Below, one piece after another: positions 3,534 through 26,584 of a DNA stretch of 64,000 nucleotides. Each line of letters starts with the position of its first letter. The stretch's first letter is position 1. The position numbers and the translations under genes are program-made. Origin of the DNA: an uncultured delta proteobacterium (GTDB lineage: Bacteria > Desulfobacterota > Binatia > Binatales > Binataceae); assembly GCA_963755705.1 (NCBI GenBank), contig CAVWKW010000001.1:165884-229883 (forward strand). Direction: 5' to 3'. Under the pieces are notes generated by a model. The model was not told where the DNA came from. It worked only from the letters and a program-made list of their open reading frames with translations, and did not search any database.

Positions 3534-3627
3534 TCATCGGCCGCTCGCTGAGAGCGGCAATTTTGGTGGACTCCACCACCTTCGAGATCAACCTAGCAGA
3601 GCGATCGGTTCCCCCGCCAGCTTTGAT

Positions 3628-4084: not shown

Positions 4085-5386
<1,302 letters not shown>

Positions 5387-5460: not shown

Positions 5461-5469
5461 GTACTCGCG

Positions 5470-7398: not shown

Positions 7399-7407
7399 TC
7401 GAGCAGA

Positions 7408-7500
7408 GTTGGTGATGGGGTTCACCGCTACAACCGCCCTTTCCTGAGCTGGGCTGATGACCCCTACCGAGGTGTAAGCCGGTAGGGGTTGGCTTTCTCA
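7408..7500 (+). promoter_or_regulatory. Second fluoride riboswitch (crcB motif) with terminator-type expression platform
   Basis: GGTGATGGGGTTCACCGCTACAACCGCCCTTTCCTGAGCTGGGCTGATGACCCCTACC is a near-copy of the riboswitch-1 aptamer core. It is followed by the hairpin CCCCTACC-N12-GGTAGGGG and TTGGCTTTCTC. Confidence 0.85.
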
Positions 7501-7593: not shown

Positions 7594-8547
7594 ATGATGG
7601 CGCGTTCGATCGGGTTCAACCTGCTTCAAGTGCTGTTCGTTGTCGCACTGGCCCCGCTGGTCTCGGGCGTGTTGTCGCGGCTTAAGGAGATCGTTCAATC
7701 GCGGCGCGGTCCCAGCGTTCTTCAGCCCTATCGCGACCTACGAAAGCTGTTCAACAAAGACGAAGTTGTGTCCGAGTATGCTTCCTGGGTTTTTCGGGTG
7801 ACTCCTTACGTTGTTTTTGTTGCGCCGATCTTCGTAACCACGCTGATTCCGGTGCTCACCAGCTATCCGCTCTTTTTCGCTTTCATGGGCGACATGCTGG
7901 GAGCCGGTTTCGTGCTGGCGCTAGGCGGTTTCTTTGCCACGCTTGCGGCGGTTGATACTGCCAATCCCTACGGCCCGATGGGCGCCAGTCGAACCCGGAT
8001 GGTTGGCTTCCTGGCGGAACCCGTTTTCATGATAGTTTTTTTTACAGTCTCATTCGTGGCCGGCTCGACAATCCCTTACGTCGTTCAGCAGCACTGGGTG
8101 ACGCCGTTTTCGAATTTTCTTGCACCTTCGCACGTGCTGTTGGTGATCGCGTTCATCATGCTCATCATCGCCGAGGCTGGCCGGATTCCGGTGGACAATC
8201 CGACTGGCCATTTCGAACTCGCGATGATCGACGAGTCGAAGAGTCTCGAGTACTCGGGCACCGGTATGGCGCTGATGAAATGGGGCGGGCAGATGAAGCT
8301 GCTGGTGCTGATGTGCATCCTGCTCAACGTATTGGTAACGCCATGGGGACTTGCCATCGGCCAGAACACTGCCGAGGTCCTGCTGGCGGCACCGCTGGTG
8401 CTCTTCAAAGTAGCGATTTTTATACTGGTGGTGGTAGTGATCGAATCCTCACTCTCGAAATTGCGGCTCTTTCGCGTCAGTGAATTTCTGGGCGCGGCCT
8501 TCGTAACCTCGGTGGTAGCAATGATCACCGGGCTACTGAGCTTTTAG
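7594..8547 (+). CDS. Ehr/Hyf-type complex membrane subunit, NuoH/HycD-like (EhrB-like)
   Basis: 317 aa polytopic. LQPYRDLRKLFNKDEV corresponds to the NuoH QPxADxxKLxxKE signature. Confidence 0.8.
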   Translation: MMARSIGFNLLQVLFVVALAPLVSGVLSRLKEIVQSRRGPSVLQPYRDLRKLFNKDEVVSEYASWVFRVTPYVVFVAPIFVTTLIPVLTSYPLFFAFMGDMLGAGFVLALGGFFATLAAVDTANPYGPMGASRTRMVGFLAEPVFMIVFFTVSFVAGSTIPYVVQQHWVTPFSNFLAPSHVLLVIAFIMLIIAEAGRIPVDNPTGHFELAMIDESKSLEYSGTGMALMKWGGQMKLLVLMCILLNVLVTPWGLAIGQNTAEVLLAAPLVLFKVAIFILVVVVIESSLSKLRLFRVSEFLGAAFVTSVVAMITGLLSF

Positions 8548-8559
8548 CCAAAGACTCCA

Positions 8560-9240
8560 ATGGCGAATTACTACGCATTCATGAGCTCGCTGAATGGCCT
8601 GGCCGCGGGACTGTTCCTGATGAGTTCGTTCGGGCTCGCGGCGACGCGCCAGATGCAGGGATGCCAGCGATTCTATATTACTCAGTCTTTGTGCCTGGTG
8701 GTGTCGGCGCTGTTGCTCGGCCTCGGTTTGCACGCACCCGACCTGTTGGCGGTCGCCGCGCTTGACGTGGTGGTAAAGCCGATTGTAATTCCACGGCTGC
8801 TCCGACGCATGGTGCCTGAAGCCATTTTCAGAAGACGCGAGATCGATCAGGTATTGAATATTCCCAGCTCGCTGCTGATCGCGCTCGCGTTGACGCTGCT
8901 GGCCTATTTTCTTAGTGGATATCTGCCACCGGCGGCCGGCAGTTTGGCAAGAATCAACCTTCCTATTGGCCTCGCGGGGATATTCATAGGCATTTACACG
9001 CTCACGGTTCGGCGCGAGGCGGTGCCTCAACTGATTGGCATCTTTGGCATCGAGAATGGCGCCTTGCTTTGTGGCTTCGCGATTGCGCCGACGCTGCCAC
9101 TGGTAATCGAGATGGTCTTCCCGTTCGATATGCTGATCATCGCGCTGGTTATCGGAATCCTCACTCGAATGACGCATGAACGGGTCGGAACGACCGAGGT
9201 GGGTGGCTTCAGGACTCTGCGAGAAGGTTCCGGGAAATGA
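8560..9240 (+). CDS. Ehr/Hyf-type small membrane subunit, HyfE-like (EhrC-like)
   Basis: 226-aa hydrophobic protein in the position and of the size of HyfE. No catalytic motifs expected. Confidence 0.6.
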   Translation: MANYYAFMSSLNGLAAGLFLMSSFGLAATRQMQGCQRFYITQSLCLVVSALLLGLGLHAPDLLAVAALDVVVKPIVIPRLLRRMVPEAIFRRREIDQVLNIPSSLLIALALTLLAYFLSGYLPPAAGSLARINLPIGLAGIFIGIYTLTVRREAVPQLIGIFGIENGALLCGFAIAPTLPLVIEMVFPFDMLIIALVIGILTRMTHERVGTTEVGGFRTLREGSGK

Positions 9241-10685
9241 TCCTCTTCGTGATTCTCGCGCTTCCGCTGATTGCCGCGTCAATATCGGCAATCCCGCTCG
9301 GTCGCCGCGTCGCTCCTGCGGTTACGCTTGCGTCGTGTGTGGCAGTACTGGAGTTGACGGTCGCGGCAGCGCTGCGCGTCGTCGCGGGAGAATCGGTGGT
9401 TGCGATACGTAACTGGATCGCCATTGACGGACTAAGCACGTTGGTATTGTTGCTGGTCGCGACGGTGGGAAGTACCGCGGCGCTCTTTTCGTGGGGCTAC
9501 ATCGCTCGGGAAAAGAATTCACGCCATCTGCGCCGCTATTATGCCAATTACAATTTGTTTGTGTTCGCGATGCTCTCGGTGCCCATGCTTATCGAGCCGA
9601 ACCTGGTGTGGACCGGAGTGGAGTTGACCACGATTCTTTCCGTTTACCTGGTCGCATTCGAAAATACTGGCGAAGCTCTGGAAGCCGCGTGGAAGTACTC
9701 AGTGCTCACGATTATGGGGGGAGCGATAGCTCTGCTCGGATTTCTGGCCCTGTATGCCGCGACGCGGGGCAGGTACCCGGGAGTGCCTTACACCTGGCAT
9801 ACGCTGATCGTGCTTGCGCCCAAAGTTTCGCCGGGTGTGCTTGAGACCGCGTTCGTCTTGATTCTCGTTGGGTTTGGCGCCAAGGCCGGTTTGGTTCCCC
9901 TGCACACGTGGCTGCCCGACGCGCACAGCCAGGCGCCGAGCCCGATATGCGCGCTGCTCTCAGGGATCAAGACCACGGTGATTTTATACGTGATATTGCG
10001 TCTCATTCCGGTGTTGAACGCTTCTGGAAAGATCGATATCGACGCTTGGGCGATGGTCGTAGGTTTGTTCTCGGTAGGTATTGCCGCATTTCTGATTATT
10101 CAGGTGACTGACTATAAGCGGCTGTTCGCATTCTCCACGGTCGAGCATATGGGAATCATTTTGGCCGCCGCTGGGATTGGTGGTGCCGCCGGTCATTATG
10201 GCGCCGTATATCAAATACTAAACCATGCGCTGACCAAATCGTTTTGTTTTTTTGCGGCCGGCGCGACCTTACTCGCAGTGGACACGCGGCAAATCGCGGA
10301 AGTGCGGGGATTGATACGGACCTCGCCCCCCGCGGGTGTGGCTCTGCTGTTCGGCGGAATCGCGATCGCCGGTGCACCACCGCTGGCGGTCTTTTTGAGT
10401 GAGTTCTCGATCCTGCGCTCAGGAATCGCTGCGCAACACTATCTTGCAACCGGTCTGCTCGCTGGATTCGTAATAGTTGCATTCTTCGGGATTCTTTATC
10501 ACCTCAACCGGATGGTTTTCGGGAAACCGCAATCGACCACCGAAAATATAGTACCGGTAAAACTGCCGGTGAGCTGTATCCTGACGCTAATTCTGGCCGC
10601 GATACCGATCATCATTCTCGGAGTCTATATGCCGCAGTCGCTGCATACTCTTCTTCGGATGGCTGCCGACGGCCTGACGAGGTGA
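9237..10685 (+). CDS. Ehr/Hyf-type antiporter-like subunit, NuoN/NuoM/HyfF-like (EhrD-like)
   Basis: 482 aa, about 14 TM. Mrp/NuoLMN-family pattern (WTGVELTTILSVYLVAFE..., GFGAKAGLVPLHTWLPDAHSQAP). Confidence 0.8.
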   Translation: MILFVILALPLIAASISAIPLGRRVAPAVTLASCVAVLELTVAAALRVVAGESVVAIRNWIAIDGLSTLVLLLVATVGSTAALFSWGYIAREKNSRHLRRYYANYNLFVFAMLSVPMLIEPNLVWTGVELTTILSVYLVAFENTGEALEAAWKYSVLTIMGGAIALLGFLALYAATRGRYPGVPYTWHTLIVLAPKVSPGVLETAFVLILVGFGAKAGLVPLHTWLPDAHSQAPSPICALLSGIKTTVILYVILRLIPVLNASGKIDIDAWAMVVGLFSVGIAAFLIIQVTDYKRLFAFSTVEHMGIILAAAGIGGAAGHYGAVYQILNHALTKSFCFFAAGATLLAVDTRQIAEVRGLIRTSPPAGVALLFGGIAIAGAPPLAVFLSEFSILRSGIAAQHYLATGLLAGFVIVAFFGILYHLNRMVFGKPQSTTENIVPVKLPVSCILTLILAAIPIIILGVYMPQSLHTLLRMAADGLTR

Positions 10686-10688
10686 TCG

Positions 10689-12278
10689 ATGCCCCCGGGA
10701 CTCCGACAAGTACTCGAAGAGGCTACCGCGCGATGGAACAGCAACGTTCGCCCGAGCCCCGAAGACGGCGCCGAATCGGCTTATCGGTTGGAGTGCGAGC
10801 CTCGTGCACTGCCGGAGATTTGCGACTGGCTATTCTCTGAGATGAATTACAGCTTCGGCGGCCTTGTCGTCGAGCAGCTAGCGCAATGGGAGCTGCGCTA
10901 TTTATTTTACGGGGGCTCGGACGCAGGCTGGCTGCACGTTCTTACTCATCTATCCCCTTCCGAAGATCGAGTACCCAGCATCAGCAGGCTGGTGCATGCC
11001 GCCGACTGGCACGAACGCGAGGTCGAGGATCTGTTCGGGCTGTTCTTCGAGGGGCACCCTCGCCTTGGTGACTTCGTGCTTCACGACGACGTTTGGCATG
11101 AGGGCATCGCTCCGATGCGTAAAAGCTTCGTTGCAAGCGAGCCCGTACTTCATCGTGAGCCTGACCTGACGTGGAAGCCCCGCCAGATCGTCGAGGAAGC
11201 GGGCGCTTTTTCGATGCCAGTAGGGCCCATCTATTCGGCGGCCACTGGGCCGGTGCACTTTCAGCTTGAAACCGTGGGTGAGGACGTGATTCGCGCGCAG
11301 CCGCGTCTCTTCTACGCCTATCGAGGGCTGGAAAAAATCGCGGAGGGACGTCAGGCCGAAGACGTGCTGCTGATCGCGGAGCGGATCAGCGGAACTTCGG
11401 CATTCGCTCATTCACTCGCGGTTTGTCAGTCCGTCGAGCACGTCAGCCAAATCGAAGTGCCGCCGCGAGGCCGCGCGCTGAGAATATTTGCCGCCGAGCT
11501 CGAACGCCTGCGGCATCATGCGTCGGTGATCGAAGGTATCTGTGAATCCACCGCCCTTGCTGTGGCTGCTGCGCAGGCCGCGATCCTCGAAGAAGACTTG
11601 CTCCGGATTTCCGGCGCTCTTACCGGCCATCGATATCTGTTCGGCCTGAGCACCTTCGGCGGCGTGACGATAGACCTTGATGGCGCAGCCTGCCGGGGAG
11701 CGGCGGCGCAGGTGCGAGATATAGGTGAAAAGCTCTCAACTCTGGAGCGGATGCTTAGCACCTCGAGCAGCTTCCTCGACCGCCTCGAGCAGGTTGGTGA
11801 TGTCTCGGCGAACGATGCCCGCGAGTTTGGGCTGGTCGGACCTATCGCTCGCGCCTCCGGCGTTTCGCGGGATCTGAGGAAGGCGCAGCCATATTCCGGC
11901 TATGAGGCGGTTGAGTTTGAAGTTCCACGTGAAACCGAGGGGGATGGCTTCGCGCGGCTGCGCCTGTTCTTTCGGGAGGCTACGCAATCAGTGCGGATTA
12001 TTTCGAAGATCGCCGAACGGATTCCAGATGGCCGGTTTCGCGCGCCGGAAGTCTGGTTGCGGCCCGGTGCCGCGCTGGGCTGGGTTGAAGCGCCACGCGG
12101 AGCCGCTCTGCATTGGCTTCGTTTGCGCGAGGACGGCGTGGTCGATCGATACCGAATTATCACGCCGTCGTTCGCTAACTGGCACGGGTTCAGGCTTGCG
12201 GCCGAAAGATTTGCGTTCCAGGACTTTCCAATAATCCTCGCGACGTTCGCGCTCTCAGTTCACGAGAACGATCGCTAG
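10689..12278 (+). CDS. Ehr-type large subunit (NuoC-NuoD/HycE-like fusion) lacking the [NiFe]-binding cysteines
   Basis: NuoD/HycE core (FSMPVGPIYSAATGPVHFQLETVGE). At the L1 motif position the sequence is ERISGTSAFAHS, i.e. RxCGxCxxxH with both Cys replaced by Ser. The C-terminus ...ALSVHENDR has no DPCxxCxxH motif and resembles the NuoD end. Confidence 0.8.
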   Translation: MPPGLRQVLEEATARWNSNVRPSPEDGAESAYRLECEPRALPEICDWLFSEMNYSFGGLVVEQLAQWELRYLFYGGSDAGWLHVLTHLSPSEDRVPSISRLVHAADWHEREVEDLFGLFFEGHPRLGDFVLHDDVWHEGIAPMRKSFVASEPVLHREPDLTWKPRQIVEEAGAFSMPVGPIYSAATGPVHFQLETVGEDVIRAQPRLFYAYRGLEKIAEGRQAEDVLLIAERISGTSAFAHSLAVCQSVEHVSQIEVPPRGRALRIFAAELERLRHHASVIEGICESTALAVAAAQAAILEEDLLRISGALTGHRYLFGLSTFGGVTIDLDGAACRGAAAQVRDIGEKLSTLERMLSTSSSFLDRLEQVGDVSANDAREFGLVGPIARASGVSRDLRKAQPYSGYEAVEFEVPRETEGDGFARLRLFFREATQSVRIISKIAERIPDGRFRAPEVWLRPGAALGWVEAPRGAALHWLRLREDGVVDRYRIITPSFANWHGFRLAAERFAFQDFPIILATFALSVHENDR

Positions 12279-12293
12279 ACGGCGGGAACAGCC

Positions 12294-13064
12294 ATGAGCC
12301 AATGGTTGATCAAGGGTCTCAGAACCGGCATCAAGAGCACGCCCTATCCGCGCGCCACGGAAACTGCGGCTGGAACGTCCCCAGGCCTGCCCGCCGCTAC
12401 CAGACTCGCCGCGGAGCAGGCGCAATCGGTGGTGGCTCGGTGTCCTACAGGTGCGCTTGAACTCGCGCCGGCTGGTGTGGACGTGAACGTGCGCCAGTGT
12501 ATCCACTGCATGCGGTGCGCGCGTGATACGGACAGACCGATGGATTGGGAACGCGGCTACGAGTGGGCGAGCGAAGTCTCGGCGGTTGATGACCGAACCC
12601 GGCACTTCGGTCCCGCGTTTGCTCGGTCGGTTCAGATTCTCGTGGTCGATACAGGCGACTGCGGTGCGTGCCTGAATGAAGTCCGACAGCTCAACAATCC
12701 CTACTACAACCTGCATCGCCTCGGATTCTTTCTCACTCCAACTCCGCGGCATGCGGACGTGTTGCTCGTAGTCGGAGCGCTGACCGAGCACATGCGCGCG
12801 CCCCTGCTCAAGGCTTACAACGCGATGCCTGGTCCAAAGCGCATCGTTGCCGTAGGCGCGTGCGCGTTATCGGGAGGAATTTTTGGCCGGAGCTTCATGT
12901 GCGCAGGCGGAGTAAGCGAACTGCTCCCGGTCGATGTCGAGGTGCCGGGTAATCCGCCGCCGCCACTAGCTATCCTGCACGGACTATTGGTTGCGGTGGG
13001 CCGTAAAACCTCTGCCAGTTTGCATCGCGCGGTAGGTGGCTCCACGGGGAAAGCGTCGGGATGA
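12294..13064 (+). CDS. Ehr-type small subunit (NuoB/HycG-like) with degenerate N-terminal ferredoxin-like region
   Basis: DTGDCGACLNE (CxxC..E), VGACALSGG (GxCxxxGG) and VPGNPPPP (where CPGCPP/VPGCPP is expected; Cys replaced by Asn). The N-terminus has a single CIHCMRC (CxxCxxC) plus CPTG remnant. Confidence 0.75.
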   Translation: MSQWLIKGLRTGIKSTPYPRATETAAGTSPGLPAATRLAAEQAQSVVARCPTGALELAPAGVDVNVRQCIHCMRCARDTDRPMDWERGYEWASEVSAVDDRTRHFGPAFARSVQILVVDTGDCGACLNEVRQLNNPYYNLHRLGFFLTPTPRHADVLLVVGALTEHMRAPLLKAYNAMPGPKRIVAVGACALSGGIFGRSFMCAGGVSELLPVDVEVPGNPPPPLAILHGLLVAVGRKTSASLHRAVGGSTGKASG

Positions 13065-15211
13065 CCGCGATGGGCTTGCTGCTGATCATCATCCTGGGGT
13101 TGTGCGTCGTCGGGATATTGTTGCCGCTGGCGGTTGATGAACGATTAACGCCGGCGATTGTGGGATGGCTCGGAGCGTGCGCGGCCGCCGTCTTACTCTG
13201 CTTCAGCGGAGCCTCTCTGTTTGCCGACGTGCCGTTTCACTCGACGTTGTGGAGCATTCCCTCGCTGGCGACGCTCACGCTCTCGCTCGATCGGCTGTCG
13301 GCGCTGTTTCTTTTTGTCTCGGGCTTGATCCTCCTTCCCGGATCGATTTTCGCCGCCGGCAATCTCCGTCGATACGCGGGCCGGTACAGTCTCGGGGCCT
13401 TTAGCGTTCCATATTTCGCGCTCTTCGCAACGCTGGTGTTGATTCCTTTATCGGCCGACGCGGTCTCCTTCCTGATGCTGTGGGAGTCGATGTCGATCCT
13501 GATCTATCTGCTGGTGAACTACGAAGACGAAGATGAGGAGCATATCCGGTCGGGATTCCTGATGCTCGCGGTGGGCGAGGCCGGCACGCTCCTCATCGCG
13601 CTCGCGTTCATCGTGCTCGCCAAAAATGGCTCGCTCGAGTTCGCCGCGATGAAGGATGGCTCAGGTACGTTGACCGAGTACACGCGATGGGCCGTTTTTC
13701 TGCTCGCGTTTTTTGGCTTCGGCGTGAAGGCCGGTCTCATCCCGGTGAACTTTTGGCTCCCGCAGGCTTATGCCGCTGCGCCGGACGCCTTCGTTCCGGT
13801 GCTGGCTGGAGCGACCTTGAACCTCGGAATTTACGGAATCGTCAGAGTCAATGGCGATCTGCTGCCGGTTGCGATGATCGGCCCCGGCATCGTCGCGCTG
13901 ATAATAGGCAGTGTTACCGCATTGCTCGGGATACTTTACGCGACAACCCAGAACGATCTTAAAACTATGCTCGCGCACAGCTCGATCGAGAACGCGGGCA
14001 TCATCACGGCGGCTCTTGGCGCGGGGTTCATCTTCGTGGCGTCGAATCGCCCATCGCTCGCAGCGATTGCGTTCGCGGCGGCCTTCTACCACACAGCGAA
14101 TCACTCGATCTATAAGGCCCTGCTGTTCTTCGCGACCGGTGCGGTTGATTCAAATACCGGGACGCGAAGCATCGACCGGCTCGGAGGCTTGATAAAGGCG
14201 ATGCCTCTCACCGCATTGTTCTTTCTGGTTGGCGCGCTGTCGATCGCGGCGCTGCCGCCGTTCAACGGATTCGTCAGCGAATGGCTCACGCTGCAGACGA
14301 TGCTGCAAAGCGCGGGGCTCGCTTCGACTGGCGTGAAAATCGTCTTTGCGCTTTGTGGCGCGATCCTCGCCCTGACCGCAGCGCTCGCGGTGACCTGCTT
14401 CGTGAAGGCGTTTGCGATGAGCTTCCTCGGAATGCCGCGCTCCGAATCTGCCGCGCAGAGTCGGCCTGCGCGAGCCTCTGCGACCCTTCCGATGGCGTTC
14501 CTCGCGGTGCTCTGCCTCGTGCTCGGAGTGACTCCGACCTATGTGATTCCGGTGCTCGACGGAGCGATAGCGCCGATCGCGGGGCAAGCTCGCGCTGCCG
14601 ACGCACTGGTGCCGCCATTCTTCGCCGGCAACGTTCATCACGGCGAGTTGCCCGCATCCTTCGTCGCGGACTTTCACGCGATCGGCGCGCAAGTTGGACA
14701 GAGTATCTTGCCGGGACGCGGGCTGGTCGTGATGCATCGCGGCGGCAAAGCCAATCCGATCGTGTTCGCAATGTCCACTTCGTACATGGCGGTGGTCTTA
14801 GCGTTGATGCTGCTGATGACTTACGTTGTTTTTCGAGTAGTGATTGCTCGAAGCCGCGCCATCGAGCGGCGCGCGGTCTGGGATGGAGGTATCCGGAGGT
14901 TGCTCCCGGAAATGACCTACACTGGTACGGGATTCTCGAATCCGGTGCGAGTTATCTTTGAGGCGATCTTCAGGCCTACCACCGTGGAGGACACCAGAGA
15001 GACGGTAGGAAAGCATTTCCGGGCGGCGATTCGCCGCACGCGCGGAGAAAATCACGTACTCGACCGTCTGATTCTCAATCCGATCGCGGATGCCGCCTTG
15101 TGGGTATCAAAAGGTTTCGCGCGGATGCATCACGGCATTCTCAACGCGTACGTTCTCTACGGGCTCGGCGCGCTAATCCTGGCGCTTTTGATCGCGAGAT
15201 TTTCCTCATGA
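13061..15211 (+). CDS. Ehr/Hyf-type antiporter-like subunit, NuoL/HyfB-like (EhrA-like)
   Basis: 716 aa, many TM. NuoL/MrpA-like motifs (GVKAGLIPVNFWLPQAYAAAPDAFVPVLAGATL). Start overlaps the small-subunit stop. Confidence 0.8.
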   Translation: MTAMGLLLIIILGLCVVGILLPLAVDERLTPAIVGWLGACAAAVLLCFSGASLFADVPFHSTLWSIPSLATLTLSLDRLSALFLFVSGLILLPGSIFAAGNLRRYAGRYSLGAFSVPYFALFATLVLIPLSADAVSFLMLWESMSILIYLLVNYEDEDEEHIRSGFLMLAVGEAGTLLIALAFIVLAKNGSLEFAAMKDGSGTLTEYTRWAVFLLAFFGFGVKAGLIPVNFWLPQAYAAAPDAFVPVLAGATLNLGIYGIVRVNGDLLPVAMIGPGIVALIIGSVTALLGILYATTQNDLKTMLAHSSIENAGIITAALGAGFIFVASNRPSLAAIAFAAAFYHTANHSIYKALLFFATGAVDSNTGTRSIDRLGGLIKAMPLTALFFLVGALSIAALPPFNGFVSEWLTLQTMLQSAGLASTGVKIVFALCGAILALTAALAVTCFVKAFAMSFLGMPRSESAAQSRPARASATLPMAFLAVLCLVLGVTPTYVIPVLDGAIAPIAGQARAADALVPPFFAGNVHHGELPASFVADFHAIGAQVGQSILPGRGLVVMHRGGKANPIVFAMSTSYMAVVLALMLLMTYVVFRVVIARSRAIERRAVWDGGIRRLLPEMTYTGTGFSNPVRVIFEAIFRPTTVEDTRETVGKHFRAAIRRTRGENHVLDRLILNPIADAALWVSKGFARMHHGILNAYVLYGLGALILALLIARFSS

Positions 15212-15384
15212 AGCTTGACCGGCGTTAAACGGAGTCTTAATTTTGAACTGTAGGCGGTGGAGTCCGCCGATATCTGCCATCCGGCCAATGACTCCTGCAA
15301 GCGGGTAGAGACCCGTGGCAGGAGTTTCCACTCCAGAAGCTGGGTCTCGAGACCGCTCCGACGATTGCTGATCGGAGGCCGCAA

Positions 15385-16212
15385 GTGCTCGAGCGCCTGA
15401 CAAAAAATTTCCGGGAACTACTCAAGAAGTTCGAGGGCGCGTCGTGCCCGCTGTGTTCTGTACTAAAATGGCGGGAACAACAGCGGCTTGAGCGGCTGCG
15501 CGCAAGCGGCGTTTCGACGCGTGTCCTGTGCGGCCCGCATCTCGAAATGGCTCTGGCCGCGCTTGCTATCCGGACGGCAAGGGCGCGACTGACTCGTAGC
15601 GCGATCGAATCCGTCCTCGCCGGCCGTCCCGATTGCGAAGTGTGCTCATGGCTGTGCCAAATCGAGCTTCGGCTAGTGCGAGCGATTCGTCGTTTGGACG
15701 GCGGGATGCGCTTCCAGAAGGCTCTCGAATCGGCGCCGCTGTTCTGCCGCAAGCATGCGAGGGCGATCGGTGAACAAAATGCAGCGGTTAATTTTGCACA
15801 CGTCCAGAAGGCGAGGCTGCTTCGCTTGCGTAACGCGCTGGCTCAAGCAGAGTTGCGCAACAGCGCGGAGTTGGAATCGCTGATATCCAAGACGCTTGCG
15901 TACTTGGCTGCCCCAGTCGAGCAAGAGCCGGCATCAGAAGTCCTCGATTCCTCCGATAGCACGGAGAGTGACGCCGCGGAATTCGGGCGATGGGAGGATG
16001 CGCGTCAGCTCAAACATCTATCTGACCTCGAGAGCGAAGCGGCAAGCCTGCGCTATCGCAACGCAACGCTCGCCGAGGAAAACCGCAGACTCAAGCTCGC
16101 GCATGCTGCGGGCGAGGCTTTGAGGCGCGACCTCGAACACGATCGAGAGCAGTTTATTGCCGCGGCAAAAGCACAGGATCCAAATTCCGTAAAATCTTCA
16201 AACCGGAATTGA
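15385..16212 (+). CDS. Hypothetical protein with two C2CH zinc-ribbon-like modules and a C-terminal coiled-coil/acidic tail (GTG start)
   Basis: GGAGG RBS 6 nt before GTG at 15385. Modules CPLC-x24-LCGPH and CEVC-x33-FCRKH. C-terminal heptad-like ESEAASLRYRNATLAEENRRLKLAHAAGEALRRDLE. Confidence 0.55.
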   Translation: MLERLTKNFRELLKKFEGASCPLCSVLKWREQQRLERLRASGVSTRVLCGPHLEMALAALAIRTARARLTRSAIESVLAGRPDCEVCSWLCQIELRLVRAIRRLDGGMRFQKALESAPLFCRKHARAIGEQNAAVNFAHVQKARLLRLRNALAQAELRNSAELESLISKTLAYLAAPVEQEPASEVLDSSDSTESDAAEFGRWEDARQLKHLSDLESEAASLRYRNATLAEENRRLKLAHAAGEALRRDLEHDREQFIAAAKAQDPNSVKSSNRN

Positions 16213-16926
16213 ATGGAGCGAATCATCCCCATGCGAATCTGCATCATCTCTGACCTGCATGCGAACCTCGAGGCTCTTGCAGCGTTGCCGAGCGACTATG
16301 ACGAGTTATGGGTATTGGGCGACCTGGTCGATTATGGTCCCGATCCGGCTGAAACGATCGAATTCGTCCGATCTCACGCGTTGACCGTGATTCGAGGCAA
16401 CCATGACAACGCGGTCGGATTCGGAACGGACTGCGGATGCTCTCCCCGATTCACCGCGATGGCGGAGGCAACACGCAAGTACACTACCTCAGTCTTGAGT
16501 GCGAGCGACAAGCAGTTTCTCCGCGACCTCCCGACGTGCGCGTGCCGCCAACTAGACGGTCGAGTATTTTTTCTCTGCCACGCGACCCCGTCGGATCTTT
16601 TGTACGAATACCGTCCGCCAGACTCTCCTCTGTGGGCCCGAGATGAGGAGTCCAGTTCAGGAGCGGACGTTCTGCTGGCGGGCCATACGCACCTGCCGTT
16701 CGTACGCGTCTTCGGCGAGCGCGTCGTAGCTAATCCGGGAAGTCTCGGACAATCGAAAGTTGGAGGTGCGCGTGCCCGCTATGCGGTCTGGCAGGATGAC
16801 CATATCGAGCTAAAGGACTACGAATATCCCGTCAATAAAACTATACACAAAATTCTGACACTGCCATTGCCCGAGGAAGTAAAGCACGATCTCGTCTGTG
16901 TGCTTCGCACGGGGACGGCGCCGTGA
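16213..16926 (+). CDS. Calcineurin-like metallophosphoesterase (YfcE/MJ0936/Vps29-fold family)
   Basis: Motifs ISDLHAN, VLGDLVDYGPDP, RGNHDN and GHTH, in canonical order. Confidence 0.8.
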   Translation: MERIIPMRICIISDLHANLEALAALPSDYDELWVLGDLVDYGPDPAETIEFVRSHALTVIRGNHDNAVGFGTDCGCSPRFTAMAEATRKYTTSVLSASDKQFLRDLPTCACRQLDGRVFFLCHATPSDLLYEYRPPDSPLWARDEESSSGADVLLAGHTHLPFVRVFGERVVANPGSLGQSKVGGARARYAVWQDDHIELKDYEYPVNKTIHKILTLPLPEEVKHDLVCVLRTGTAP

Positions 16927-17918
16927 GTACTAATAGTCATCGAGACGCCGCGCCGGCGCCGATTGCGATCACGGCGGACTCCGCAAAACTCACTGCTCTG
17001 GGACGTCACCTGCGATCTCTGCACGACGGGGACGGCGCGGTGATTGAGGCAATCGGCATCGGTGCTCCAGCGGTTCCGATCCTGCGGGCACTTCTGTCTG
17101 AGCGAGACTTCACGGGGATTTTCGAACCGCGGATGCGGGCCGTTCAGGCGCTGGCCGCGCTCAGAGCCACGAGCGAATTGAAAGAGTACGTTCGGGGGTG
17201 GCAATCGGCCTCAGACCCCGTCGAGCGATTCGGAGACGAGGCAGTGCTGGGGACGGCCGCCAGATTTTTGGGCGCGACTAAAGACGAAGACGCTTATCAG
17301 ATCTTGATCGCGGTGGCCCGAAAGCATCCGGTGCCTGGCGTCATCGAAGCATTGGGAAGCTGTGGCCGCAAGGAATCGATTCCGATCGTAATCAAAGCCC
17401 TTGCCGACGACGTCAGCCGTAGCGCCGCGGAACAGGCGTTAAGAATCCTCGGAGAGGTCGGCGCACCTGCACTCATCGAAGCCGCCCTGCGACCCGTAGC
17501 GAACTTTTGGGGCAGTGAAATTCCATCCAGTGTGCGGCGGCGCCGCAGCGCACTGATGCTGCTGTTCGAATTTGGCGTCACCCGCGACATTTGGGACCGC
17601 GTCCGCGGGTTGGCAGCGGATTCAGACGACGAGATCGCGGTCCACGCGTGCGCGATTGGCCTGACCGCCGGGACCTATCCCGACCAGCGCGATTGCGCGC
17701 GCCGAATGGTGGCACTGCTGCGTCAGGTGGCGTGGCCGCTTCATCGTGAAGTCGAGGACTGTCTGATAGTTCATTTCGCAATCGCGCGCGAGTTCGTCGA
17801 ACAGGCGATCAAAAGCCCGATGGACCTGATCGCGAATGACTTCGCGCGTGCCCGCTTCAAACGATCCCTGCGCCGGATCGCGGCGCGAGCATCAACCAGC
17901 CAGGCGCCCAGGAGTTGA
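16923..17918 (+). CDS. HEAT/PBS-lyase-type alpha-solenoid repeat protein
   Basis: Repeated ~30-aa units (AVxALGxIGxPAVPxLxxLLxD...) typical of HEAT-like repeats. Start overlaps the upstream stop. Confidence 0.7.
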   Translation: MSTNSHRDAAPAPIAITADSAKLTALGRHLRSLHDGDGAVIEAIGIGAPAVPILRALLSERDFTGIFEPRMRAVQALAALRATSELKEYVRGWQSASDPVERFGDEAVLGTAARFLGATKDEDAYQILIAVARKHPVPGVIEALGSCGRKESIPIVIKALADDVSRSAAEQALRILGEVGAPALIEAALRPVANFWGSEIPSSVRRRRSALMLLFEFGVTRDIWDRVRGLAADSDDEIAVHACAIGLTAGTYPDQRDCARRMVALLRQVAWPLHREVEDCLIVHFAIAREFVEQAIKSPMDLIANDFARARFKRSLRRIAARASTSQAPRS

Positions 17919-20380
17919 CCTCGATGCCGCAAGCAGCGTCGCAGATCTCGGATATCGCGAGCGATGCTGTCCGCCGCTATGACGATCTCAAGCTTGAGAT
18001 CGCGGCGATCGGACAGACCGCGATGCTCACCTGCACCAAAGATAAAGATGAGGAAGGTGAGCGAGCGTTCCAGTCGGTGCTGGCGCGGCTCGCTGAAGAT
18101 CACTTCAATCTCGCCGTTATCGGTCCCTTCAGTCGCGGTAAGAGCAGCCTGATGAACGCGATCCTCGGTTTTCAGGGCCTGCCCACCGGCCTCCTGCCGC
18201 ACACCTCCGTCATCACGACCGTCAGTTACGCGCCACACGAACGCGTTCTCGTTCGGTGCGCGGGATGGCCGCTTCCGCAGGAGGTTCGACTCGATCAACT
18301 CGCTGAGTATGTAACCGAACGGGGAAATCCCGGCAATCGGCGGGGCGTGGCGCTCGCGGAGATCCAGTTGCCGGCCGAGATCCTTCGCCACGGCCTCTAC
18401 TTTATCGATACTCCGGGCGTTGGTTCCGCGATCGTCGCCAACACAAAAACCACGGAACGGTTCCTTCCCGAGATCGATGCCGCGGTCTTCGTCTCCAGTT
18501 TCGATTTCGCCGTAAGCGAGGCGGATATCGAGTTCTTGCGTACCGTTACCGCGACGGTGGGCAAGGTATTTTTCGTCCTGAACAAACTCGACCTCACGTC
18601 GAAGTCCGAGGCCGAAGAAGTCATCAGATTCGTCCGCGACCGGCTCGACCGCGAACCGGGTATTGGGCGCTACTCTTTGTTCGCTGTGTCGGCCAAGCGC
18701 GCGCTCGAAGCAAAACTACATGGAGATTCGGGTGCGCTAGCCCAGTCCGGGCTGATTGAACTGGAGGATGCGCTGGCGGCATTCACGGCCTCGGACAAGA
18801 CGCACCAATTGTCCGTGCGCGTAATGGACCGCCTGGTCGCTCTGCTGCAACGCGAACGCGCACACGCCGGTTTTGCTGTAGCTTCAAAGCGATCTTCTTC
18901 GCAGGTCTCCGAAGCACTCGTCGGGTTCGATGAAAAGGCCGCCGTCCTCAAAGTGCGATGCGCGGCACTCGTAAACCGCCTTGGAGCGCTGGGCAATGAT
19001 GCGCTGCGCGCCTCTCAACGGCGCCTCGACTTCGCGTTCACCAGCCTCAAGCAAAGCGCGACTTTGAAATTCGCGCCGAACTTTCTTACCGGCAGGATAT
19101 TTTCCAGGCCGAATACGCTCGATACTTTCACGCGCAACGTGTCCGTGTTTTGTGCCGGCGCGCTCACGCGCGATTTACAAGTTTACGAGGCCGCACTGAA
19201 CGAGCATTTGGACCGGACAGCCGGTCCGGTCCGCACCGAACTTCTCGCTCTACCCTATGAAGTCTTCGACATCGCGATGAATGATGAGGGCAACACTCGC
19301 GAGCTTTCAAAGCTCTCTGCGGAAGAGCCCGAGGCAGCGCCGCCTTCTGTGGGGCTCGGGGGGATCGCGCGCATCGAGTGGAGACCGCGATTGCCGTGGT
19401 GGATATACGTGGCTCCCCGGCGCTGGTTTCCCGCGGCGATGAAGAGACAGTTTGCCGTCGCGCTCGGCGACCTGCTCGCCCAATACCGGTCCCGTGTCGA
19501 TGCGATGATCCGCGTCGTCCTGAAGGAATATGCAGAGAAACTGAATCGCGAAACTGAGAAGGCAATCGACGTTCAAGTGGCTCGCGTGAAAAAACTTCTC
19601 GCATCGGGAGGAATCGAAAAAAGTCGTCAGGTGTTCGAGACGCTTCTGGAACGAGCTAGAGAGCTAAGACGACGACTTGGTGACAACCCTGACCGTGGAT
19701 CACTGCCTGAGAATAGCGCCGCGGCTTCCGTCAGGGTGCGAGCGTGTCCTGTCTGCCGCACAGTTCTGCGCGCAGTCTTCGACTACTTAAGCAAGCTGCA
19801 ATATGAGTTGAGCATCGACGCTGACGCTCAACACCGACACGCGAAGAACGGCGGCTTTTGTTCGATGCACACGTGGATTTACGCCAGCATGACCTCGCCG
19901 GTTGCGATCGCGCGGGCCTATCCCGCGCTGCTAGACGCGCTTGCGGCTCGTCTGGAACGTGCTGCGGGAGAGGCGGTATCGATCGCGGAGCTGGCTCACG
20001 ACATTGACGATCTGGCGCCGTCGAAAGAGACTTGCGGAGCGTGCGCAATCGCCCGTGACGGAACGGAGCAGTCGGTCGCGGAGGTCCTTCGGCGCCTCGA
20101 TTCAGACGGGCGCAGCGAGGTTCCGGCCTTATGCCTGCCGCATTTGGCGATCGCACTTCACCTCGGATCGGAATTGAACGGCGCCCGTTTGCTGACCTCA
20201 CGATGCGCGAGCGCGCTGCTACGGGCTGCCGAAGACATGCGCCATCACGCGCTGAAGCACGACGCGATCCGGCGCGGCCTTATGTCGGGGGATGAGCGCG
20301 ATGCGCATCACACCGGCCTCAGAAAATTAACCGGCGACATGCTGCTGACACTCCCGCCTCGAGGGGACGACCGCCTCTAA
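17915..20380 (+). CDS. Dynamin-like GTPase (bacterial DLP family) with C-terminal double C2CH zinc modules
   Basis: G1 GPFSRGKSS, G3 DTPG and G4 NKLD in dynamin order, followed by a long helical region. The C-terminus carries CPVC-x35-FCSMH and CGAC-x28-LCLPH. Confidence 0.8.
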   Translation: MTSMPQAASQISDIASDAVRRYDDLKLEIAAIGQTAMLTCTKDKDEEGERAFQSVLARLAEDHFNLAVIGPFSRGKSSLMNAILGFQGLPTGLLPHTSVITTVSYAPHERVLVRCAGWPLPQEVRLDQLAEYVTERGNPGNRRGVALAEIQLPAEILRHGLYFIDTPGVGSAIVANTKTTERFLPEIDAAVFVSSFDFAVSEADIEFLRTVTATVGKVFFVLNKLDLTSKSEAEEVIRFVRDRLDREPGIGRYSLFAVSAKRALEAKLHGDSGALAQSGLIELEDALAAFTASDKTHQLSVRVMDRLVALLQRERAHAGFAVASKRSSSQVSEALVGFDEKAAVLKVRCAALVNRLGALGNDALRASQRRLDFAFTSLKQSATLKFAPNFLTGRIFSRPNTLDTFTRNVSVFCAGALTRDLQVYEAALNEHLDRTAGPVRTELLALPYEVFDIAMNDEGNTRELSKLSAEEPEAAPPSVGLGGIARIEWRPRLPWWIYVAPRRWFPAAMKRQFAVALGDLLAQYRSRVDAMIRVVLKEYAEKLNRETEKAIDVQVARVKKLLASGGIEKSRQVFETLLERARELRRRLGDNPDRGSLPENSAAASVRVRACPVCRTVLRAVFDYLSKLQYELSIDADAQHRHAKNGGFCSMHTWIYASMTSPVAIARAYPALLDALAARLERAAGEAVSIAELAHDIDDLAPSKETCGACAIARDGTEQSVAEVLRRLDSDGRSEVPALCLPHLAIALHLGSELNGARLLTSRCASALLRAAEDMRHHALKHDAIRRGLMSGDERDAHHTGLRKLTGDMLLTLPPRGDDRL

Positions 20381-20426: not shown

Positions 20427-21635
20427 ATGGATCGACAATCAGAGCCTGTAATTCGCGGAGTTGAGGACCTCGATTCCGGCACGCGGTTGTTCAACCGGAA
20501 CATCGCGGGCATGTGTTTGGCAAGTCTACTCTCCGATCTCGGGCATGAAATGGCGACCTCGATCCTGCCGCTGTTCCTGATCGCGATTGGAGCATCGCCC
20601 TCGGCGCTAGGAATTATTGAGGGCGCATCCGACGGAGCCGCGACGTTCGCCAAACTGCTTGGCGGCAGGATCGCGGACCACAAGGGTTTGCGCCAAAAGG
20701 TCGCAAGCCTCGGATATTTGGTGACGGGTCTTGCAACCGGATCGTTTGCTGCAGCGACGACCTGGATCGAGTTGCTGATTGCACGGACAGTCGGATGGTT
20801 CGGCAGAGGAACGCGGGGACCATCACGCGACAATCTGCTGGTCGATTCAGTGCCACGCGCGAGGATCGGCGCGGCCCTTGGGATCCATCGGACCGCCGAT
20901 ACTCTGGGAGCGATCCTGGGTCCGCTGGCCGCGATGTTCCTGCTCCATCGAATCGGGTTCCGTAACATCTTTCTGCTGAGCCTCGTGCCGGGTGTGCTTG
21001 CGGCTGCGGCTTTTTACTTCTTTGTCCGCGAACCCAATGGCGAGGCCGTGGCGCAAGGGCAGACGATTCAGGGTTGGGATGTGGCCCTGCCATCCCGCTT
21101 CCGAATGTTTCTCGCCACAATTTTGCTGTTTGGAGTCGGAGATTTCGCCCACAGCATGCTGGTGCTCAGGGCCGCACAACTGCTCGGATCAACACCCAAG
21201 GCGATGAGCATCGCCGTTGGTCTGTACGTCATCCACAACACGGCGCACGCCGCGTTGTCTTATCCAATCGGAGTCATAGGCGACCGGATCGAGCGCCGGC
21301 GCCTTCTTGCTGCCGCCTACGTGATCGCTGCGATCGCCGCGGCCGGTTTCGCCATCGGACCACACAGCGTGGGCGCATTGGCGGTGCTCTTTATTCTCGA
21401 GGGCGCGGTGATGGCGGCGCAGGAGACGCTCGATTCAGCCGTCGCGACCGATATGTTGCCAGCCGACTCGCGCGGGGCGGGATTTGGCGTATTGAATGCG
21501 ACGAGCGGAGTCGGCGACTTCGTGTCGAGCATCGTGGTCGGATTTCTTTGGACCGGCTTCTCTGGCCACATAGCCTTCGCGTATAGCGCAATCTTAAGCG
21601 CACTGGCGGCGGTAATGATGACTTGGGCGATCTGA
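20427..21635 (+). CDS. MFS transporter
   Basis: 402 aa, 12 predicted TM. G-R-(I)-xD-(R/H)-xG-R-(R/K)-type loop (GGRIADHKGLRQK). Confidence 0.8.
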   Translation: MDRQSEPVIRGVEDLDSGTRLFNRNIAGMCLASLLSDLGHEMATSILPLFLIAIGASPSALGIIEGASDGAATFAKLLGGRIADHKGLRQKVASLGYLVTGLATGSFAAATTWIELLIARTVGWFGRGTRGPSRDNLLVDSVPRARIGAALGIHRTADTLGAILGPLAAMFLLHRIGFRNIFLLSLVPGVLAAAAFYFFVREPNGEAVAQGQTIQGWDVALPSRFRMFLATILLFGVGDFAHSMLVLRAAQLLGSTPKAMSIAVGLYVIHNTAHAALSYPIGVIGDRIERRRLLAAAYVIAAIAAAGFAIGPHSVGALAVLFILEGAVMAAQETLDSAVATDMLPADSRGAGFGVLNATSGVGDFVSSIVVGFLWTGFSGHIAFAYSAILSALAAVMMTWAI

Positions 21636-22150
21636 GAGAAATAGCTGGGCCTGGTGACGAGGATGATGGATTCCTTTTGCGGAGCAGCCGCGCAAACCAG
21701 CACGGCAAAAAGCGATCGTCTGGGTCGCTGTCCATGAACTATTCGCACACGTTAAGACTTTCGATCGTGATGCGCGCGGTTGAGGACGCGGTAATCGAGA
21801 TCGAGCGCGCGCTTGAACCCGCATCGAAAGCTCCCCAGCGCGTGATGACCGATTATCAGAACGATCTCCCCGAATCCGCAAGGTTTGAGATGCGCAGGAA
21901 GCTTGAGGAGATTCGTAAAGCAATCCAGGATGCGAAAGATTGCTATGACTTGAACGTCGAAACCGTCTCTAATCGCCGGCGTCTCTCGACCAAATTGTCG
22001 ATTCTCGCGATCGATGTGACTGAATGCAGACCTGAGTATATGCGCGGCTACGGTGAGGTGGCGCACGAAGAGCACGAGCCGCTTGACCAGCGGATGTTAC
22101 AGTTAGAGGCTCTATTAAGCGACCTGAACAAACTTGCAAGCCAAGTCTAA
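21623..22150 (+). CDS. Hypothetical protein (true start probably internal, near 21734)
   Basis: ORF only. No recognisable motif. Confidence 0.3.
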   Translation: MGDLREIAGPGDEDDGFLLRSSRANQHGKKRSSGSLSMNYSHTLRLSIVMRAVEDAVIEIERALEPASKAPQRVMTDYQNDLPESARFEMRRKLEEIRKAIQDAKDCYDLNVETVSNRRRLSTKLSILAIDVTECRPEYMRGYGEVAHEEHEPLDQRMLQLEALLSDLNKLASQV

Positions 22151-22483
22151 AGCAGTCCCTTCTCAGGATTCACGCAGCGCAACGTGCATTCCGGCGCCCT
22201 GTTCGCTCCATCGAACGAACCGCATGCCCCTGCCGTGCCGTTGGTTAGGTTCTCTCATTTCCTCATTTCCGGATGGTGGGCGCACAGACAGATTGCCGCT
22301 CAGCACGGACGATCGATGGGTAATTCGTTGCCGGCGTCGGCGACGTGCACGAGGGGCTCGCAAGATATCTACTGACAGCCAGCAAGGAACCGCCGTCCCG
22401 TCGAGGTGCGGGTGGCCTCGCGTCGTTGTCCAACTTCGCAGGCGGTTGCTCGGAGCCCAACCGCTTCCGGCAAGCATGCTGAT

Positions 22484-22825
22484 ATGCTAAATAGCTCAGA
22501 GATGAAAACCTTGGGACAGTTTATCGTTGAGCGGCGCAAGGAGCTGGGGCTGGCGGGACGCGAGTTGGTGGCGGAGGTGCGCAACTCCGATGGCAAACCG
22601 ATCTCGATTCCGTTCCTGGTTGACCTCGAACACGATCGCCGCAAGCCTTCCGACGAAGTCCTTGAACAACTCGCCAAGGTTCTCAAGGTCGATTCGGATG
22701 TGCTCTACTTTTTGGCAGGGCGGTTTCCAGCCGACCTCAGCGCGACGACCGTCAACAGCGCGCAGGAACTCGCCGCGGGCTGGAAGGCGTTTCGGCGAGA
22801 AGTAAGGCGCAAGAAGAAGCCGTGA
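22484..22825 (+). CDS. XRE-family helix-turn-helix transcriptional regulator
   Basis: MKTLGQFIVERRKELGLAGRELVAEV has an HTH_XRE-like layout. Immediately upstream of an ImmA-like gene. Confidence 0.7.
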   Translation: MLNSSEMKTLGQFIVERRKELGLAGRELVAEVRNSDGKPISIPFLVDLEHDRRKPSDEVLEQLAKVLKVDSDVLYFLAGRFPADLSATTVNSAQELAAGWKAFRREVRRKKKP

Positions 22826-22894
22826 AGATGATACCGGACAGGACCGGGCGCTTTCCGGAGCGTCCGCACTGGGAGATTCCGCGAGCTTGAGCAG

Positions 22895-23489
22895 ATGTGC
22901 GAGGAGACGATTACCTCCTTTCTGCGCCAGCACTTCGGGTTTGAGCGCATCCCGGTTCCGACCGAAGCGGTCACGATGTTGATCGAGCGTGACGCCGCCG
23001 ACCTCGATTTGGCGACGAATCTGTCCGATGATATTCACGAGGTGTTTGGTTCACCCAGTTTCGAGCGCGGCGAAAAGCCGCGTGGTCAAAATCGCGCGGG
23101 AGCTGTGGGAGCAACGGCATCGTAACAATCGCTTGCGCACGACGCTGACCCACGAATATGGCCACGTGATGCTGCACACGTGGCTGTACGACAAGTACGG
23201 CGCTGCCCGCGGTCCCGACCGCTGTTACTGGCAGAGCCTGCTTCCGACCGAGCGGGTGGTGGACTGGTTTGAGTGGCAGGCGGGTTACGCCTCGGGTGCC
23301 TTGCTGATGCCGGAGAGCTTCGCGCGGCGCACGGTCGAGGCGTATTTCCAGAATCGCTCTGAGCGTCCGCCGGTCGCCAAGGGCTCGCCGGAAGCGTCAG
23401 CACTCTGCCAGCGTATATCCCTCGCGTTCGATGTCTCCGTCGAAGCCGCCACCGTGCGGCTCAAGCAACTCGGCTATCTGACCGAGTAG
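22895..23489 (+). pseudogene. ImmA/IrrE-family HExxH metallopeptidase gene with an apparent frameshift around 23050-23075
   Basis: Frame A (22895..) reads naturally to ...NLSDDIHEVFGSPSFERGE. Frame B continues ...KSRVVKIARELWEQRHRNNRLRTTLTHEYGHVMLH (HExxH) to 23489. The two ORFs overlap in different frames. Confidence 0.55.
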
Positions 23490-26581: not shown

Positions 26582-26584
26582 GCC

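Follow-up and report, generated by a model that had tools for sequence, protein, structure and literature searches.

Divergent DUF6062-type domains, free and fused to a dynamin-like GTPase, in a putative operon behind a fluoride riboswitch in a member of the Binataceae

What might link a small stand-alone protein to a dynamin-like GTPase encoded a few genes away, when both carry the same kind of paired cysteine/histidine modules? The question is raised by a 64,000-nucleotide stretch of contig CAVWKW010000001.1 (positions 165,884 to 229,883, forward strand; assembly GCA_963755705.1) from an uncultured member of the Binataceae, referred to below as the window. Here, gene 1 (15385-16212, + strand), an open reading frame of 275 amino acids with a GTG start and a Shine-Dalgarno sequence, GGAGG, at 15374-15378 (+), is followed by gene 4 (17915-20380, +), which encodes a dynamin-like protein (DLP) of 821 amino acids. 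An earlier note on this DNA had proposed that the modules of the two proteins are homologous, that they represent an undescribed zinc-binding domain and that the proteins might assemble through it in the manner of paired bacterial dynamins. The analysis described here places both regions, by profile comparison, in a catalogued protein family, Pfam DUF6062 (PF19538), and their genes behind a fluoride riboswitch. This riboswitch, overlooked in the earlier note, tells more about the locus than any other feature.

The aptamer, a match to the Rfam fluoride riboswitch family (RF01734), lies at 15244-15304 (+; 35.1 bits), 80 nt 5' of the GTG start of gene 1. A candidate expression platform, consisting of the hairpin ACTCCTGC...GCAGGAGT and then TTT (15290-15345, +; fold -29.5 kcal/mol), shares sequence with the 3' strand of the aptamer's pseudoknot, the tract after the hairpin being TTT in the window and T6 in the related locus L001 (L numbers denote the loci used for comparison). 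A further conserved hairpin, CTCCGA...TCGGAGG, is positioned over the Shine-Dalgarno sequence (15350-15380, +). These leader hairpins would fit an ON switch, in which cytoplasmic fluoride would stabilise the aptamer pseudoknot, block the overlapping hairpin or hairpins and turn the operon on. The aptamer belongs to a subclass in which GGUGGAGUCC replaces GAUGGNGUUC, and CCAAUGA or CCGAUGA replaces CUGAUGA; sites of the GGUGGAGUCC subclass are found in the window at 15244-15304 and 3521-3589, in L014 at 2362-2433 and in L011 at 9042-9110, where they precede gene 1, an inorganic pyrophosphatase and second DLPs. That the pyrophosphatase aptamer shares the GGUGGAGUCC variant argues that the variant before gene 1 still has the same ligand, fluoride.

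The gene 1 operon closes a fluoride island of roughly 19 kb. Scanning the whole window with Rfam revealed four RF01734 aptamers, all at or above the gathering score and all within 12 kb, the remaining 48 kb having none. The island opens with an inorganic pyrophosphatase (2889-3422, -; PF00719 5.8e-48) that has its riboswitch 5' of it at 3521-3589 (-; 39 bits), followed by enolase (4085-5371, -), upstream of which the same scan detected no riboswitch. Another aptamer (5464-5533, +; 54.1 bits) then stands 5' of a DUF190-CBS gene (5686-6990, +) and CrcB (about 6992-7279, +), and a third (7402-7473, +; 51.5 bits) 5' of a seven-gene Hyf/complex-I-like membrane complex identified by Pfam (7594-15211, +), which ends just before the gene 1 riboswitch. 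Both the 5'-leader aptamers and these neighbours are in keeping with the fluoride riboswitch (crcB motif) regulon, the typical genes of which encode CrcB, enolase, pyrophosphatase, a formate-hydrogenlyase-like complex, an Na+/H+ exchanger and a MutS-like protein (PMC11139923, PMC2864571). Where the locus differs is in the window operon itself, which contains dynamin, DUF6062, HEAT-repeat and YfcE-like phosphoesterase genes, none of which (dynamin-like GTPases, DUF6062, HEAT-repeat or YfcE-like phosphoesterase) appears among the riboswitch-associated classes in the reviews consulted (PMC11139923, PMC2864571).

This operon most likely comprises six genes, because starts abut or overlap preceding stops by 4 nt at all but the junctions of gene 5 and gene 6. 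Gene 2 encodes a calcineurin-like, YfcE-like metallophosphoesterase (16213-16926, +; PF12850 1.7e-21) and begins directly after the gene 1 stop codon, and gene 3, for a HEAT-repeat protein (16923-17918, +; PF13646 3.9e-9), overlaps both of its neighbours by 4 nt. The DLP gene (PF00350 5.3e-22) is separated by 46 nt from gene 5, a major facilitator superfamily (MFS) transporter (20427-21635, +; PF07690 2.9e-42), which probably belongs to the same operon as genes 1-4 and overlaps gene 6, for a small conserved protein (21623-22150, +), by 13 nt. The window copy of gene 6 has no Pfam match; its orthologue in L106 has a HEAT_2 match, and a relative of gene 6, encoding 160 aa, opens the L117 operon described below.

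The gene 1 family is restricted to Candidatus Binataceae and to metagenome-assembled genomes (MAGs) labelled delta-proteobacteria or proteobacteria (19 loci), and its neighbours were counted in 16 MAG loci (L001-L016). Gene 1 always lies just 3' of the Hyf-like complex or its replacement. Of these 16 loci, 15 also have the HEAT-repeat gene, 14 have the phosphoesterase and ten have the DLP, and the arrangement of Hyf-like complex, gene 1, phosphoesterase, HEAT, DLP, MFS and gene 6, in that order, is kept down to 38% gene 1 identity. In 11 of the 16 the position before gene 1 is likewise taken by an aptamer that reaches the gathering score, and R1, a covariance model that we made from 33 aptamers, adds L001 and L010 to the riboswitch-preceded loci. 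When these 33 aptamers are aligned, 94.9% of cells are paired, a share that drops to 35-57% if the partners are slid; pairing in the pseudoknot is complete (100%), and three of its five pairs show compensatory changes. The DLP gene, for its part, is split by frameshifts in L004/L106 (12508-15002; 271 aa and 543 aa, GCA_021827495.1) and likewise in L016 (10518-12899), and in L005 (11901-13628) it is without about 215 internal residues; these changes could reflect either decay in some lineages or errors of MAG assembly.

The two modules of gene 1 lie within an N-terminal, divergent DUF6062-like domain (residues about 7-174), the first being C21-x2-C24-x24-C49-x2-H52 (CPLC...CGPH; 15445-15540, +) and the second C84-x2-C87-x33-C121-x2-H124 (CEVC...CRKH; 15634-15756, +); beyond the domain the protein continues with an acidic linker and, towards its C-terminus, a long conserved helix (residues 192-264). 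In the DLP, the modules are part of a C-terminal DUF6062-like domain (residues about 596-821; 19700-20380, +) and read C611-x2-C614-x34-C649-x2-H652 (CPVC...CSMH; nt 19745-19870, +) and C707-x2-C710-x29-C740-x2-H743 (CGAC...CLPH; nt 20033-20143, +). The motif pairs and spacings that the earlier note gave for gene 1 are exactly those found, and its DLP motifs are where it placed them, with spacings that count as x34 and x29 rather than the x35 and x28 it had claimed. Six of the seven cysteines of gene 1 fall inside the module motifs, as do six of the seven in the last 226 residues of the DLP. Among 28 gene 1 homologues (40-94% identity, mean column identity 57%), C24, C49, H52, C84, C87, C121 and H124 are invariant and C21 is conserved in at least 90%. 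Among 11 DLP C-termini (32-86% identity), H652, C707, C710, C740 and H743 are invariant, the conservation of C614 and C649 is 90% or more, and C611 is present in all covering rows except that of the frameshifted L016. As judged from these alignments, the module ligands are under selection. The remainder of the DLP has a GTPase that matches Dynamin_N (PF00350) at 79.1 bits against a cut-off of 27, with G1 (GPFSRGKS, residues 70-77), G3 (DTPG, 165-168) and G4 (NKLD, 223-226) intact, and an aromatic-rich stretch, RLPWWIYVAPRRWFPAAM, at about residues 491-508.

AlphaFold2 (AF2) predicts all-helical folds both for gene 1 (pLDDT 84.9) and for the DLP tail (pLDDT 81.5). In all four modules, the first ligand of each CxxC or CxxH pair is placed just before a helix and the second in the first helical turn, so that each module is predicted to be a helix pair in which the two N-caps could meet at one Cys3His site. 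Such conserved ligand sets at helix N-caps suggest zinc binding, as the earlier note had supposed, and each module would bind a single structural metal ion through its Cys3His set, most likely Zn(II).

Are the four modules related by descent? Direct comparison of gene 1 with the DLP by BLASTP is marginal (E 0.026, between gene 1 module 1 and DLP module 2), and for this reason the claim of homology rests on profiles. With hhalign, the gene 1 family aligns collinearly with the DLP tail and its relatives over 129 columns (92%, E 6.5e-7) and, when DLP orthologues only are used, at 90% (E 1.4e-6), the best register in that case pairing module 1 with DLP module 2. At the level of single modules, DLP module 1 aligns with DUF6062 module 1 (99.7%, E 7e-26) and DLP module 2 with DUF6062 module 2 (98.4%, E 7e-15), while the two modules of DUF6062 align with one another (94.6%, E 7e-8), a sign of internal duplication. 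Gene 1 module 1 is nearest to the second-module type of DUF6062 and the DLP (94-97%, E 1e-7 to 1e-10; against DLP module 2, 97%, E 1e-10), and gene 1 module 2 matches the DUF6062 modules at 73-82% overall (E 1e-5 to 3e-5; 81%, E 1e-5 for module 2 and 73%, E 3e-5 for module 1). Between module 1 and module 2 of gene 1 the probability is 19% (E 1.3e-3). It follows from this matrix that all four modules derive from one duplicated unit, gene 1 being, on these scores, the most diverged copy among the module sets. The common ancestry suggested earlier is therefore borne out both for single modules and for whole domains (E 1e-6 to 1e-10), with profiles that align over 45-148 columns outside the ligands and hence beyond the Cys/His spacing, marginal as BLASTP alone is.

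The same comparisons identify the domain. The gene 1 family (alignment A1) aligns with 28 canonical DUF6062 proteins (A5) over 148 columns (95.1%, E 3.2e-8), and DLP tails (A3) align with A5, which includes one row from the window, at 100% and E 5.9e-46. In addition, 23 of 28 gene 1 family members match PF19538 at E<=0.01, while a phmmer search with the DLP tail (5.8-billion-sequence database) reaches true DUF6062 proteins, P0055 at 4.5e-9. The domain is thus, by these profile links, a divergent form of a catalogued family and not the undescribed one that the earlier note had taken it for; gene 1 and the DLP tail are, on the same basis, divergent DUF6062 copies. Canonical DUF6062 proteins have all eight ligands invariant and a C-terminal (I/L)RK(H/N)DYRF...G-x-E motif, of which the RKHDYRF...G-x-E part aligns with LKHDAIRR...GDERDA at the C-terminus of the DLP tail (variant LKHDAIRRGLMSGDERDA). 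The window copies resemble the family in their two CxxC...CxxH modules and their all-helical prediction and, in the case of the DLP tail, have a variant of the C-terminal motif; they differ from it in falling under the gathering score, in the resemblance of gene 1 module 1 to the second-module type and in the absence from gene 1 of the C-terminal motif, in place of which it has the acidic linker and a conserved helix of about 70 residues, a coiled-coil tail. We found no solved structure resembling the DUF6062-type domain, and a literature search on DUF6062 found no paper in the library covered.

That the domain occurs both free and fused to a GTPase, as had been noted for the window, is true also of many other lineages. 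An exhaustive search with a DUF6062-type profile against 1.84 billion cluster representatives (clusters at 50% identity) gave 4,492 matches at E<=1e-3. The best 153 of these include 77 free proteins of up to 300 aa, 28 of tandem size (about 440-530 aa), most with two matched stretches, and 36 with a dynamin GTPase in either a short (about 550 aa) or a long (about 820-880 aa) form. This search, together with orthologues derived from the loci, superseded a word-indexed search with the DLP tail that had given at least five matches. Several DLP fusions elsewhere exceed Pfam's own DUF6062 threshold, and the Dynamin_N plus DUF6062 architecture is therefore already visible to standard annotation, though uncharacterised.

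Fusions of this kind outside the Binataceae-type loci are 31-47% identical to gene 4 in their GTPase and tail segments, the L117 DLP being about 30% identical over its full length, and the riboswitch recurs with them. In five of six other loci (L108, L109, L112, L113 and L117) a fluoride riboswitch at or above the gathering score lies 5' of the fusion, and in L114 a leader match is given by R1 only. The riboswitch is immediately 5' of the fusion in L112, and is separated from it by a 156-aa gene in L108 and by a 97-aa gene and a cyclopropane-fatty-acid (CFA) synthase in L113. In L109/L110 the order is riboswitch, a 248-aa degenerate DUF6062-like protein, fusion and HEAT, with further separate riboswitches before an MFS gene and a second DLP, before NUDIX and enolase genes and before a MutS-like gene; in L117, Hyf-like genes are followed by the riboswitch, a 160-aa gene, a tandem DUF6062 protein (492 aa), a 102-aa gene, the fusion and enolase. 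In L114 a phosphoesterase homologous to gene 2, CFA synthase, HEAT and the fusion are followed by an Na+/H+ exchanger, Usp, enolase, a second DLP and CrcB, and homologues of gene 3 adjoin the DLP-DUF6062 gene in both L109 and L114. CFA synthase (CMAS) genes lie inside the DLP-DUF6062 operons at L113 5366-6604 and L114 4741-6021, which hints at a membrane-permeability response to hydrogen fluoride (HF).

Free DUF6062 genes also occur behind the riboswitch. In L022 an aptamer at or above the gathering score lies directly 5' of a canonical DUF6062 gene and a HEAT_2 gene, and a freshwater/sediment clade of Chloroflexi type has the order enolase, His_Phos_1, DUF6062 in riboswitch-rich loci. Across 80 metagenome loci (364.5 kb), R1 found 22 matches, spread over 13 loci; of the 28 loci that are 5 kb or longer, 11 were positive. 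Several of its Chloroflexi-type matches score below the Rfam gathering score; these retain the core and a covarying pseudoknot and were kept for that reason as probable variants. One such variant element, AGCGAUGAGGCUCGCU...GGCUGAUAGCCUCUGC, was found by R1, below the Rfam gathering score, in L031, L038, L086, L095, L097 and L101; its P1 stem and pseudoknot covary, and in L095, L097 and L101 it is directly 5' of DUF6062.

How far, then, do the free and the fused copies belong together? A free DUF6062-type protein and a DLP-DUF6062 fusion share one riboswitch operon in three operon types, and the free proteins differ in architecture, being gene 1 with its coiled-coil tail, a degenerate protein of 248 aa in L109 and a tandem protein of 492 aa in L117. 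This repeated pairing supports a functional link, which we regard as plausible from gene content. The analogy that the earlier note drew with paired dynamins fits less well, for a likelier member of such a pair is a second, Cys-free DLP (about 600-700 aa), encoded in loci that also have the fusion; it stands behind its own riboswitch in L011 (7207-9042, -), L014 (571-2364, -), L109 (2585-4474) and L113 (3053-4897), and in L114 (13033-15123) behind one matched by R1 only; the window has no second DLP. As a common binding partner for the two DUF6062-type proteins, the HEAT-repeat protein would be the best candidate, because it occurs with gene 1 in nearly every Binataceae-type locus and also accompanies DUF6062 in L022, L109 and L114.

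Among characterised bacterial DLPs (BDLP of Nostoc, DynA, LeoA/B/C, IniA/IniC and CrfC), the window DLP has in common the Dynamin_N GTPase with G1, G3 and G4 followed by a helical region, and the related loci with a second Cys-free DLP resemble the known DLP pairs; what sets it apart is its C-terminal Cys3His DUF6062-type domain and the fluoride riboswitch. To our knowledge, no characterised bacterial DLP has a DUF6062-type tail or is under fluoride riboswitch control, and literature searches combining the fluoride riboswitch with dynamin or with Binatia found no paper. Against the NCBIfam equivalog models for DynA, LeoA and CrfC the DLP is far below all cut-offs (12.5 bits for the LeoA subfamily, with a cut-off of 325). 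PADLOC gives matches to LeoA (2.7e-12, best stretch residues 22-85) and LeoBC (9.6e-5, residues 47-382); a weak match to the PADLOC candidate PDC-S70 (19739-19987, DLP residues 609-691; E 2.9e-4, 18.7 bits) lies over the first Cys3His module.

Mobile-element genes surround the fluoride island of the window (1155-2099, 22406-23489 and 25061-29344), their types being an IS1-like transposase, a helix-turn-helix (HTH) and M78 (IrrE-like) pair, a TrwB-type coupling protein and a TrwC relaxase, and in the orthologous locus L106 the operon is followed by genes for a PIN protein, an integrase and a DDE transposase. The island may adjoin an integrative element. A tRNA-Sec gene (RF01852, 70.4 bits) is found further on, at 31253-31344 (+).

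Taken as a whole, we favour, as a reading that is somewhat probable, a DUF6062 domain and a dynamin partner that are induced by fluoride and act in membrane remodelling or repair under fluoride/HF stress. The DUF6062 domain would be a metal-stabilised protein-binding or targeting module, through which the free coiled-coil protein and the GTPase might engage the same partner, the HEAT protein being the best candidate, or each other, and the resulting complex would steer GTP-driven membrane remodelling or repair during such stress. The proposed membrane-remodelling output draws its support only from the dynamin itself and from the CFA synthase genes in two related operons. More tentatively, we see it as possible that the DLP-DUF6062 protein, the free paralogue and the HEAT protein form an unrecognised effector arm of the fluoride response, with Cys3His domains that serve assembly or targeting or that respond to fluoride or metal-fluoride species.

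Several observations weigh against this reading. The riboswitch before gene 1 is narrowly above the gathering score (35.1 against 34 bits) and departs from the consensus at some conserved positions, with GGUGG for GAUGG and AUCU for AACC. The window proteins fall short of the PF19538 gathering threshold of 27 bits, gene 1 scoring 13.6 bits and the DLP 13.9 bits at full length and 17.7 bits for its tail alone; two gene 1 homologues and several DLP fusions do have this Pfam match. Gene 1 is without a DLP in six of the 16 Binataceae-type loci (L006, L007, L009, L010, L012 and L015), from which it follows that heteromeric assembly, if it takes place, is not obligatory, and the fusion in L108 has no free DUF6062 partner in view. 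In a soil clade, about 50 loci with canonical DUF6062 (e.g. L024), which double as a negative control for R1, have no riboswitch or fluoride genes within 5 kb. DUF6062 is therefore not tied to fluoride in general, and a universal link between the two was rejected on account of these loci. Finally, a tandem DUF6062 protein, P0236 (516 aa), overlaps the stop of a gene for a fusion of an extracytoplasmic function (ECF) sigma factor with ankyrin repeats (L115 4269-6712, GCA_041890195.1); it is coupled to the sigma factor and not to fluoride genes, and no fluoride riboswitch was found in L115.

Some of these points bear most directly on the view that gene 1 and the DLP tail, as paralogous DUF6062-type domains, share ancestry and form no partnership, gene 1 working with the HEAT protein or the Hyf-like complex as a general fluoride-stress factor and the DLP tail serving the regulation or targeting of its own GTPase. 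This view is favoured by the loci in which gene 1 lacks the DLP and yet is nearly always with HEAT and always after the Hyf-like complex or its replacement, by the unaccompanied fusion of L108 and by the Chloroflexi-type loci where canonical DUF6062 occurs without any DLP. It accounts less readily for the three operon types in which a differently built free protein is joined to a fusion behind one riboswitch, and we think it rather unlikely. Independence of the two proteins is a different matter from the origin of their modules, and the notion that these are convergent, with the Cys/His spacing in common and no common descent, is scarcely credible: the marginal BLASTP result and the weak match between the two gene 1 modules would suit it, whereas profiles that align well beyond the ligands, the matches of both gene 1 and the DLP to PF19538 and the same secondary-structure pattern in two independent AF2 models would not.

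Other readings concern what the domain or the GTPase does. Cys3His ligation is also known in 2Fe-2S proteins, and the sets might coordinate an Fe-S cluster, or else a metal that is labile or redox-active, making DUF6062 a sensor or regulator that is anti-sigma-like or acts as a switch. The P0236 gene, translationally coupled to the ECF sigma-ankyrin fusion, is in the classic anti-sigma position, and DLP residues 703-731 weakly match NADH_4Fe-4S (E 0.077 with the whole protein, 0.0089 with the C-terminal segment). Like the ZAS (zinc-binding) anti-sigma factors, DUF6062 is predicted to be a helical domain with a Cys/His metal site, and this one tandem member occupies an anti-sigma-like position after an ECF sigma factor; the ligands differ in number and in order, which is the reverse of the ZAS H-x3-C-x2-C, and neither gene 1 nor the DLP has a Pfam match to zf-HC2 (ZAS). 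With a single, riboswitch-free sigma-factor context seen, no sigma factor in the window operon, and a ligand spacing and helix-cap position that look typical of structural sites, we hold the sensor reading to be improbable. Still less probable, to the point of being very doubtful, is an anti-phage or general membrane-stress dynamin of the Eleos/LeoA-LeoBC or DynA kind whose placement in the island is incidental. Mobile-element genes (TrwB/TrwC, IS1-like) are nearby and PADLOC returns LeoA, LeoBC and PDC-S70, but its matches are weak only, on which ground an anti-phage reading of the DLP was rejected, and those to LeoA and LeoBC are far weaker than for true members and confined to the N-terminal dynamin part. 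Nor would incidental placement explain a riboswitch that lies in the operon's own leader and is kept in 11-13 of the 16 orthologous loci and before five of six other fusions, or neighbours in related loci that include enolase, CrcB, an Na+/H+ exchanger, a MutS-like protein and CMAS, all but the last of these being established fluoride-regulon genes.

The new element is that DLP-DUF6062 operons, and part of the free DUF6062 family, consistently stand under fluoride riboswitches. This appears to be unreported; we found no mention in the literature searched of such a placement of riboswitch, DLP and DUF6062, although the gene table of the original riboswitch paper might hold it. It would amount to a new effector module of the fluoride regulon, which beyond its exporters is so far partly understood, and to a new context for bacterial dynamins. 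DUF6062, a family of about 4,500 clusters and without a known function or structure, gains a testable context in the form of fluoride induction and of HEAT-repeat and dynamin partners, and would acquire a function if the favoured reading is true. A bacterial dynamin would in that case have a defined chemical trigger that could be used experimentally, where the triggers of DLPs are mostly unknown, and membrane remodelling, including the CFA synthase of related operons, would join the candidate defences against HF influx.

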